Shown here: piece after piece, positions 21,248 to 22,849 of the stretch
Position numbering within the stretch: the first letter of the stretch is position 1
Layout of the letters: the number at the start of each line of letters is the position of its first letter
Assembly (NCBI RefSeq): GCF_041886205.1
Contig: NZ_CP169029.1
Reading direction: 5' to 3' (one strand)
Length of the DNA stretch: 64,000 nt
Source: Escherichia coli
GTDB taxonomy: Bacteria > Pseudomonadota > Gammaproteobacteria > Enterobacterales > Enterobacteriaceae
The notes under the pieces: model-generated
What the model was told of the DNA's origin: nothing
Database searches by the model: none
Seen by the model: the letters and a program-made list of their open reading frames with translations, nothing else
Position numbers and translations under genes: made by a program

Positions 21248-22108
21248 ATGTTCGGTCTGAGGAAAGTAAATCGAAACACTCATACGTTTGAAACCACTTT
21301 TCAAAATTGGAAAGAAAATGGCGAAGATGTTGCATTATTAATGCCCGAATTTAGTGCTAAATGGCTACCGATAGCAGAAGAGAGTGGCAGCTGGTCTGGA
21401 TGGGTATTGCTTGGAGAAATATTTCCCTTAATTTCATCTGAGCTCGCTGGGATGGCTTTAATGCCAGAAACGGAAAGGTTAATAGGGGAATGGCTCAGTT
21501 TATCCAGTTCCCCGTTAAATCTAAAGCATCCTGAACTAAAATATAATCGTTTGCGCGTAGGTAAAGTATTTGATGGAGTATTGAGCCCTGCTCAACCACT
21601 AATAAGAATATGGACAGGGGAATTGAATCTTTGGTTAGATAAAGTCACAGTCTGCCAATACGGAAACGCTCCAGCGTTAGACAAAAAATCGTTATATTGC
21701 TCCATTCATTTTGTAATTGGATTTAGTAAAACATGTTACAGAAGTCTTGTTGATATTGAAGTTGGTGATGTTTTATTAATCTCAAATAATTTGGCTTATG
21801 CGGTTATTTATAATACAAAAATTTTTGATTTAATTTATCCAGAGGAGTTAAAAATGGCTGATCATTTTGAGTACGAGGAAGATTTTGAAACAGATGATTT
21901 TGATATCAAAAAAAACGAGAGTGAGATTTATGATGAAAATGACGATCAGATGATTAATAGTTTTGAAGACTTGCCTGTAAAAATTGAGTTTGTTCTTGGT
22001 AAGAAAATAATGAATCTATATGAAATAGACGAACTCTGTGCAAAAAGAATAATATCTCTGCTTTCTGAATCTGAGAAAAATATAGAAATACGTGTAATGG
22101 CGCGCTAA
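21248..22108 (+). CDS. epaO: T3SS C-ring/sorting platform protein (SpaO/YscQ family, ETT2), C-terminally truncated by frameshift
   Basis: SpoA-like segments (IEVGDVLLI, LPVKIEFVLGKK); C-terminal residues continue in another frame (TGYGELVEVDDKLGVEIHSWL) up to the epaP start. Confidence 0.6.
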   Translation: MFGLRKVNRNTHTFETTFQNWKENGEDVALLMPEFSAKWLPIAEESGSWSGWVLLGEIFPLISSELAGMALMPETERLIGEWLSLSSSPLNLKHPELKYNRLRVGKVFDGVLSPAQPLIRIWTGELNLWLDKVTVCQYGNAPALDKKSLYCSIHFVIGFSKTCYRSLVDIEVGDVLLISNNLAYAVIYNTKIFDLIYPEELKMADHFEYEEDFETDDFDIKKNESEIYDENDDQMINSFEDLPVKIEFVLGKKIMNLYEIDELCAKRIISLLSESEKNIEIRVMAR

Positions 22109-22183
22109 CTGGCTATGGAGAACTTGTTGAAGTGGATGATAAATTGGGCGTAGAGATTCATTCTTGGTTATCAGGGCATAATA

Positions 22184-22849
22184 ATGTCAAATAGCATTTC
22201 GCTGATAGCTATACTATCATTATTTACACTATTGCCGTTTATAATAGCATCCGGGACATATTTTATTAAATTCTCGATTGTTTTTGTTATTGTCCGAAAC
22301 GCGCTGGGGCTTCAGCAAGTGCCATCAAATATGACACTTAATGGGGTTGCTTTGCTATTGTCAATGTTTGTAATGATGCCGGTTGGGAAGGAAATATATT
22401 ATAACAGTCAGAATGAGAATCTTTCATTCAATAATGTAGCGTCGGTTGTTAATTTTGTTGAGACAGGCATGAGTGGTTATAAATCATATTTGATAAAATA
22501 TTCCGAACCGGAGTTGGTTAACTTTTTTGAAAAGATTCAGAAGGTGAATAGCTCTGAAGACAATGAAGAGATATTCGATGATGATAATATTTCAATTTTC
22601 TCGTTACTCCCGGCATATGCGTTGAGTGAGATAAAAAGTGCATTTATTATAGGTTTTTATATCTATTTACCCTTTGTTGTAGTGGATCTGGTTATATCCA
22701 GCGTTCTGTTAACGTTAGGTATGATGATGATGAGTCCGGTAACCATATCTACACCGATAAAATTAATTTTGTTTGTCGCGATGGACGGTTGGACAATGTT
22801 ATCAAAAGGACTCATTTTACAATATTTTGACCTATCCATTAATCCCTGA
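22184..22849 (+). CDS. epaP: T3SS export apparatus protein (SpaP/EscR/FliP family)
   Basis: 221 aa membrane protein; N-terminus ISLIAILSLFTLLPFIIASGTYFIKFSIVFVIVRNALGLQQ typical of SpaP. Confidence 0.85.
   Translation: MSNSISLIAILSLFTLLPFIIASGTYFIKFSIVFVIVRNALGLQQVPSNMTLNGVALLLSMFVMMPVGKEIYYNSQNENLSFNNVASVVNFVETGMSGYKSYLIKYSEPELVNFFEKIQKVNSSEDNEEIFDDDNISIFSLLPAYALSEIKSAFIIGFYIYLPFVVVDLVISSVLLTLGMMMMSPVTISTPIKLILFVAMDGWTMLSKGLILQYFDLSINP

Follow-up and report, generated by a model that had tools for sequence, protein, structure and literature searches.

How does a gene for part of a secretion apparatus come to stop midway through its last domain, with the remainder of that domain still legible in another reading frame? 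This is the question raised by epaO in a 64,000-nucleotide stretch of Escherichia coli DNA (here, the window; RefSeq assembly GCF_041886205.1, contig NZ_CP169029.1), where it belongs to ETT2 (the second of the E. coli clusters for type III secretion), adjoining the tRNA gene glyU. Our answer, which we consider very likely to be right, is that epaO carries a heritable 1-bp loss-of-function deletion, peculiar to a small lineage, that arose in the neutral decay of an ETT2 that was already dead. The features on which this answer turns are the following.

21248 to 22108, forward strand: truncated epaO, homologue of SctQ/SpaO, 286 amino acids, ending in VMAR and a stop

22096 to 22097, forward strand: site of the lesion, AA against AAA in the in-frame alleles, a 1-bp deletion placed by the alignment and the lists of indels

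22100 to 22105, forward strand: GCGCGC hexamer, unchanged ancestral sequence, invariant in all five aligned alleles

22106 to 22108, forward strand: premature TAA produced by the frameshift, 75 nt upstream of the epaP ATG

22098 to 22194, forward strand: what is left, out of frame, of the final 32 epaO codons, (N)GALTGYGELVEVDDKLGVEIHSWLSGHNNVK and the original stop at 22192-22194, being the second half of SpoA2

22184 to 22849, forward strand: epaP (SctR), intact, 221 amino acids, annotated in the genome wlxctx60 as EscR/YscR/HrcR family

The open frame of 286 amino acids closes with SESEKNIEIRVMAR (final residues EKNIEIRVMAR) and the TAA at 22106-22108. Past this truncation a SpaO-like tail, NGALTGYGELVEVDDKLGVEIHSWLSGHNNVK followed by a stop, is found in another frame; read from 22078 to 22194, that frame gives KYRNTCNGALTGYGELVEVDDKLGVEIHSWLSGHNNVK and stops at 22192-22194. 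The third frame of the junction region is closed by several stops and holds no open tail. An initial annotation, made from the letters alone, had described a SpaO-like frame ending in NIEIRVMAR at 22108 and a second frame continuing to the start of epaP, and both are there in the sequence. Its further claim, that a frameshift cuts epaO short just upstream of the overlap with epaP, also stands, since in-frame alleles read through this point. The original epaO stop falls within the start of epaP (ATG at 22184), the usual overlap being 11 nt.

What, then, shifted the frame? The initial annotation had blamed a 2-bp insertion, a GC dinucleotide duplicated within the GCGCGC that does indeed sit at the junction, and by its effect this mechanism could not be told from the true one, because a deletion of one base and an insertion of two change the frame equally. 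What separates them is an alignment of the junction in the window and in four E. coli genomes obtained by megablast with a 1,153-nt query: LHM10-1 (identical), TA8571 (99.8%), O157:H7 TX 376-2 (96.6%) and EF5-18-41 (93.3%). The three in-frame alleles (TA8571, O157 and EF5-18-41) read GTAAATGGCGCGCTAAC where the window reads GTAATGGCGCGCTAAC; in the alignment, those three have CGTGTAAATGGCGCGCTAACTGGC, and the window and LHM10-1 have CGTGTAATGGCGCGCTAACTGGC. One A absent from the AAA run (GTAAATGGC to GTAATGGC) is the sole difference at the junction, and with it the ancestral codons GTA AAT GGC GCG CTA ACT (V N G A L T) become GTA ATG GCG CGC TAA (V M A R stop). When the epa operon is aligned globally with O157, EF5-18-41 and ATCC 8739, the identical single-base gap falls at the lesion. 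The hexamer, on the other hand, varies neither in length nor in sequence among the aligned alleles, even those that are 93-97% identical, and the window's gene falls short of its closest read-through relatives by one base instead of exceeding them by two: they span 77 nt where a query cut from the window's junction spans 76. As read from these alignments, the lesion is a 1-bp deletion, AAA to AA, upstream of the hexamer, and we leave the GC duplication practically no probability as the cause of the frameshift. The mechanism is thereby corrected from a +2 duplication to a -1 deletion.

Is the missing A real? The 76-nt query matches exactly in only 4 of 5,426 complete E. coli genomes, at least 1,158 others matching over 77 nt with the extra A present, and epaO is in frame at the junction in about 99% of the genomes that have the gene. 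The AA allele is carried by LHM10-1 (pig, China), by wlxctx60 (Asiatic black bear, Japan), and by CP52E and 6EVA (both human). Across 10.7 kb of ETT2 the window and wlxctx60 show 100.0% identity, and in LHM10-1 and wlxctx60 RefSeq already annotates the identical epaO as a “frameshifted” pseudogene. Among public contigs, the exact 286-aa product occurs on 287 and the exact repaired protein of 315 aa on at least 1,000. One might still suppose an error of sequencing or assembly, the true genome having AAA and an intact epaO frame: single-base indels are the commonest type of error, and three other 1-bp deletions of this lineage lie in homopolymers of 7-8 nt. Yet the allele is present in four independently sequenced complete genomes, its product is on contigs from several sources, and a run of 3 nt is not error-prone on any current platform. 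Because the assemblies are independent and come from different hosts and countries, we take a sequencing artefact to be ruled out, and an intact frame hidden by error is very improbable. As a clonal marker, the AA allele picks out a small lineage of E. coli.

A true deletion might nevertheless be masked, if programmed recoding (ribosomal frameshifting or transcriptional slippage) restored full-length EpaO, and the downstream frame is in fact open and undamaged up to the original stop. The lesion, however, is of recent origin, and that accounts for the openness. Neither a slippery heptamer nor a long A/T run is present at or before 22096 (and no slippery motif in 22090-22108); the frame is kept at this site in at least 1,158 related genomes and broken in 4, which makes the out-of-frame state derived and rare; and the machinery that EpaO would serve is absent. 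Recoding accordingly has next to no claim on our belief.

What has the gene lost? With the A put back, the window would encode an EpaO of 315 aa identical to the open frame of TA8571. Against the Pfam profile FliMN_C (SpoA, PF01052; gathering score 23.8), this repaired protein scores 50.9 bits (E 1.5e-13) over profile positions 3-72 of 73, whereas the 286-aa product scores 21.5 bits (E 2.3e-4) over positions 3-47, under the gathering score, so that the truncation drops positions 48-73 of the SpoA domain. The gain from 21.5 to 50.9 bits once the tail is joined bears out the earlier suggestion that what went missing is the C-terminal SpoA region. The NCBIfam equivalog for SpaO-type SctQ, NF006018 (length 303, curated cut-off 223 bits), gives 494.5 bits over positions 3-303 for the repaired protein and 420.8 bits over only 3-271 for the 286-aa product; repaired EpaO also matches TIGR02551, SpaO_YscQ. 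Its tail aligns residue for residue with the crystallised SpoA2 construct of Salmonella SpaO, 4YX1 (NVEIMANGVLLGNGELVQMNDTLGVEIHEWLS; E 1.2e-14), and with Shigella Spa33-C, 4TT9, and the ancestral Asn-Gly (AAT GGC) that the deletion destroyed is the conserved “NG” of SpoA2 in both structures. The similarity of the out-of-frame tail to SpoA is far above chance. Directly 3' of epaO lie epaP, epaQ, epaR and epaS (sctR-S-T-U), the context in which an SctQ gene would be looked for. Judged by these profiles, alignments and neighbours, the epaO of the window is by descent a member of the SctQ/SpaO-YscQ family and a pseudogene that no longer encodes a complete member, and the function of the protein would have gone with the tail. 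None of the in-frame alleles compared ends where the truncated frame does; the 315-aa forms and a 328-aa form from O157 all reach their stop inside epaP. The initial annotation had named intact orthologues with that same end as what would overturn its claim, and on this test the claim survives.

Two further consequences may follow. If epaO and epaP are translationally coupled, the coupling would be lost with a stop that comes 75 nt early. The second consequence concerns a possible shorter product, for which EpaO has a candidate start.

21854 to 21856, forward strand: candidate internal start, an in-frame ATG (codon 203) with GAGGAG ahead of it at 21842-21847

This ATG is kept in the divergent allele of EF5-18-41, where the surrounding residues are ELKMVDHF, and codon 203 is also what we take to be the internal start of SpaO. 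The spaO gene is known for tandem translation, with a second, C-terminal product made from an internal start (PMC7058095). By analogy with SpaO, a short EpaO-C isoform from codon 203 would presumably lack the same 32 residues.

Did the loss of this tail end the working life of a secretion system, or did it happen to one that had already failed? Here the remainder of the cluster has to be considered, and two older lesions come first.

21121 to 21129, forward strand: junction of an 8.7-kb ETT2 deletion, located by BLAST, at which the downstream flank of pkgA is joined to a 3' remnant of eivJ

23897 to 25016, forward strand: epaS (SctU), a pseudogene that has lost 1 bp at each of two places, about 23924 and about 24599; its 5' bound is approximate and is taken from a feature that the Prokaryotic Genome Annotation Pipeline (PGAP) placed in wlxctx60

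Compared by BLAST with the full-length O157 cluster, positions 19236-21129 of the window correspond to positions 3100-4984 of that locus and positions 21121-36000 to 13712-28610, leaving a gap of 8,727 bp between 4984 and 13712. The two segments overlap by 9 nt in the window, which suggests a short microhomology at the junction. Deleted with positions 4985-13711 are a GhoT-like toxin gene, eivF, sctC/eivG, eivE, sctV/eivA, sctN/eivC, eivI and most of eivJ, and among them the genes for the secretin, the gatekeeper, SctV and the ATPase. The arrangement (glyU adjacent, the pkgA flank joined to the eivJ remnant, and eivF, G, E, A, C and I missing) is that of an 8.74-kb deletion isoform of ETT2 already described (PMC11068852). 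Farther along, epaS is split into open reading frames of 210 and 130 aa and is flagged as “frameshifted” in related annotations. Of the core set that a functional type III secretion system needs intact, then, sctC, sctV and sctN are deleted in the window, and sctU (epaS), sctD (eprH) and sctQ (epaO) are frameshifted.

The order of events can be read from ATCC 8739, which has the 8.7-kb deletion and both epaS deletions in common with the window and still reads through the epaO junction; the epaO deletion therefore came after the cluster had been inactivated. Over 10.8 kb of ETT2 the window differs from ATCC 8739 by 16 substitutions and four 1-bp deletions, these last being in epaO, in a T-run at 26580 in eprH and in A-runs at 29189 and 29440, and the latter three all fall within T or A runs of 7-8 nt. 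The deletion at 26580 splits eprH, the homologue of PrgH/SctD, into two open reading frames; those at 29189 and 29440 lie in an orgB-like region. One of the differences from ATCC 8739, C to T at 20637, makes a TAA that truncates pkgA (a GH15 glucoamylase), whose annotated length is 1,134 nt in the identical allele of wlxctx60, compared with 1,611 nt for ATCC 8739 and TA8571. So many indels have the look of unconstrained decay, and the AA allele, taken with the 1-bp deletions linked to it (eprH, orgB-like region) and with the stop in pkgA, makes a clean clonal marker.

On this evidence we reconstruct the event as follows. One A was lost from the AAA run at 22096-22097 of epaO, the gene for a cytoplasmic sorting-platform protein of the SctQ/SpaO type; the resulting -1 shift exchanges the last 32 residues (NGALTGYGELVEVDDKLGVEIHSWLSGHNNVK) for MAR and a stop. 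Full-length EpaO is thereby deprived of the latter half of its C-terminal SpoA2 (FliN-like) domain, and any EpaO-C isoform would be too. The mutation is spontaneous and became fixed in a small lineage after the 8.7-kb deletion and the epaS frameshifts, and it is best taken as part of the neutral decay of a dead system rather than as regulation or recoding.

Must such a lesion be neutral? One may imagine instead that the 286-aa EpaO, or an altered translation of epaP, is a functional variant that selection has favoured, and for this it can be said that the allele is present in hundreds of sequenced isolates and that degenerate ETT2 loci have been reported to affect phenotypes (PMC11068852). What the variant would have to work with argues the other way. 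Profile positions 48-73 of SpoA are gone, from a domain that has been crystallised as SpoA2 of SpaO (4YX1). SpoA domains fold as intertwined dimers, and half of this dimer-forming domain is lost, its partners SctN, SctV and the secretin being deleted too; the same lineage carries further inactivating lesions, as drift or hitch-hiking predicts. We consider a selected variant very unlikely, and return to neutral decay as the better account. Two points weigh on the other side of that account. The phenotypes reported for degenerate ETT2 clusters, mostly through regulators (PMC11068852), mean that strict neutrality of the epaO lesion is something that we infer, and slippage hotspots are usually longer runs than A3, so that the lesion may have come about by replication slippage or by a random deletion.

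How new is any of this? The mutational attrition of ETT2 is well documented (PMC11068852, PMC3977695, PMC7058095; also Ren et al. 2004, J Bacteriol 186:3547, as cited in PMC3977695), and the window conforms to it, with the same glyU-adjacent locus and gene set, the same 8.7-kb deletion isoform, and frameshifts and stops likewise scattered over the epa, epr and org genes. It differs in its epaO lesion, a rare sub-lineage allele (the 4 complete genomes already counted); in the ETT2 literature accessible to us we found no mention of the change from AAA to AA at the 3' end of epaO. Compared with the SctQ sorting-platform proteins that carry a C-terminal SpoA domain, namely SpaO of Salmonella SPI-1, Spa33 of Shigella and YscQ of Yersinia (4YX1, 4TT9, 3UEP), repaired EpaO aligns with SpoA2 over its last 70 residues and shares with SpaO the ATG at codon 203 and its Shine-Dalgarno sequence; the window departs from all three in that its SpoA2 is incomplete, with 32 residues out of frame, and its cluster lacks the genes for the ATPase, SctV and the secretin. 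What the window shows is a commonplace secondary lesion of one lineage, annotated before now and in line with the known attrition of ETT2. Its biological weight is small, since it adds a single lesion to a cluster that had lost those three genes.

The nearest precedent in the same gene is a premature stop in epaO of E. coli O157:H7 Sakai and of two ST69 isolates, which Fox et al. 2020 (PMC7058095) describe, Sakai epaO being in their terms a mutant. There too a point lesion has inactivated the gene, and the same reasoning applies, namely that the system would be disabled once full-length SctQ is gone. The O157 lesion, unlike that of the window, is at the 5' end, where the window has the non-deleted sequence. 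In letters, O157:H7 epaO is without one base, CACTCATACG becoming CACTCTACG (at the site that corresponds to window 21208-21291). With that base gone, the canonical ATG opens a frame that stops after 30 codons, and from an ATG 40 nt upstream O157 reads through to give the 328-aa protein, which PGAP calls intact. A junction of the O157 type turns up in 307 of about 2,978 genomes, and the alignment to NF006018, which starts at residue 2 in the 315-aa form, starts only at residue 13 in the O157 form.

These facts bear on how the annotation of epaO in public genomes is to be read. The PGAP “frameshifted” flag was tried as a guide to intact alleles and failed: it stands on epaO in all four inspected non-O157 genomes that lack the window's deletion (TA8571, EF5-18-41, ATCC 8739 and NCTC11023), and in two of these, TA8571 and EF5-18-41, a frame of 315 aa runs unbroken from the counterpart of the ATG at 21248, beginning MFGLRKVNRNTH, despite the flag. 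We traced the failure to the O157-type 5' deletion. Because open 315-aa alleles are flagged, the flag cannot separate them from the real frameshift of the window. Most likely the 315-aa form is the native one, and its flag is an artefact of the evidence protein chosen. We lean, with some reserve, towards a more particular version, in which RefSeq/PGAP uses the O157-type 328-aa EpaO as its evidence for an intact gene and the flags are spurious across some 2,700 complete genomes without the O157 junction. If this is true, surveys of “intact ETT2” that rely on flags are systematically biased, and the lesion in the window is among the few real frameshifts of epaO.

Upstream of ETT2, a 13.2-kb integrative island (6032-19268) is inserted in glyU, the gene for tRNA-Gly(ccc) at 6032-6105, and a 30-nt direct repeat of the 3' end of glyU lies at 19239-19268. 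Three of the genes in this island are worth listing.

7248 to 8387, reverse strand: TIR_2+DUF3298 protein, likely anti-phage cargo

16997 to 17914, reverse strand: AbiTii, likely anti-phage cargo

17935 to 19152, reverse strand: tyrosine integrase

The combination of this island with the present ETT2 allele occurs in none of the complete RefSeq E. coli genomes, the best match having 86% coverage and 96.4% identity. The island also encodes a resolvase, a DEAD/DEAH helicase and an endonuclease VII-like protein. A related island in NCTC11023 adds capsid and HNH genes, and it is these that suggest a phage-satellite-like element.
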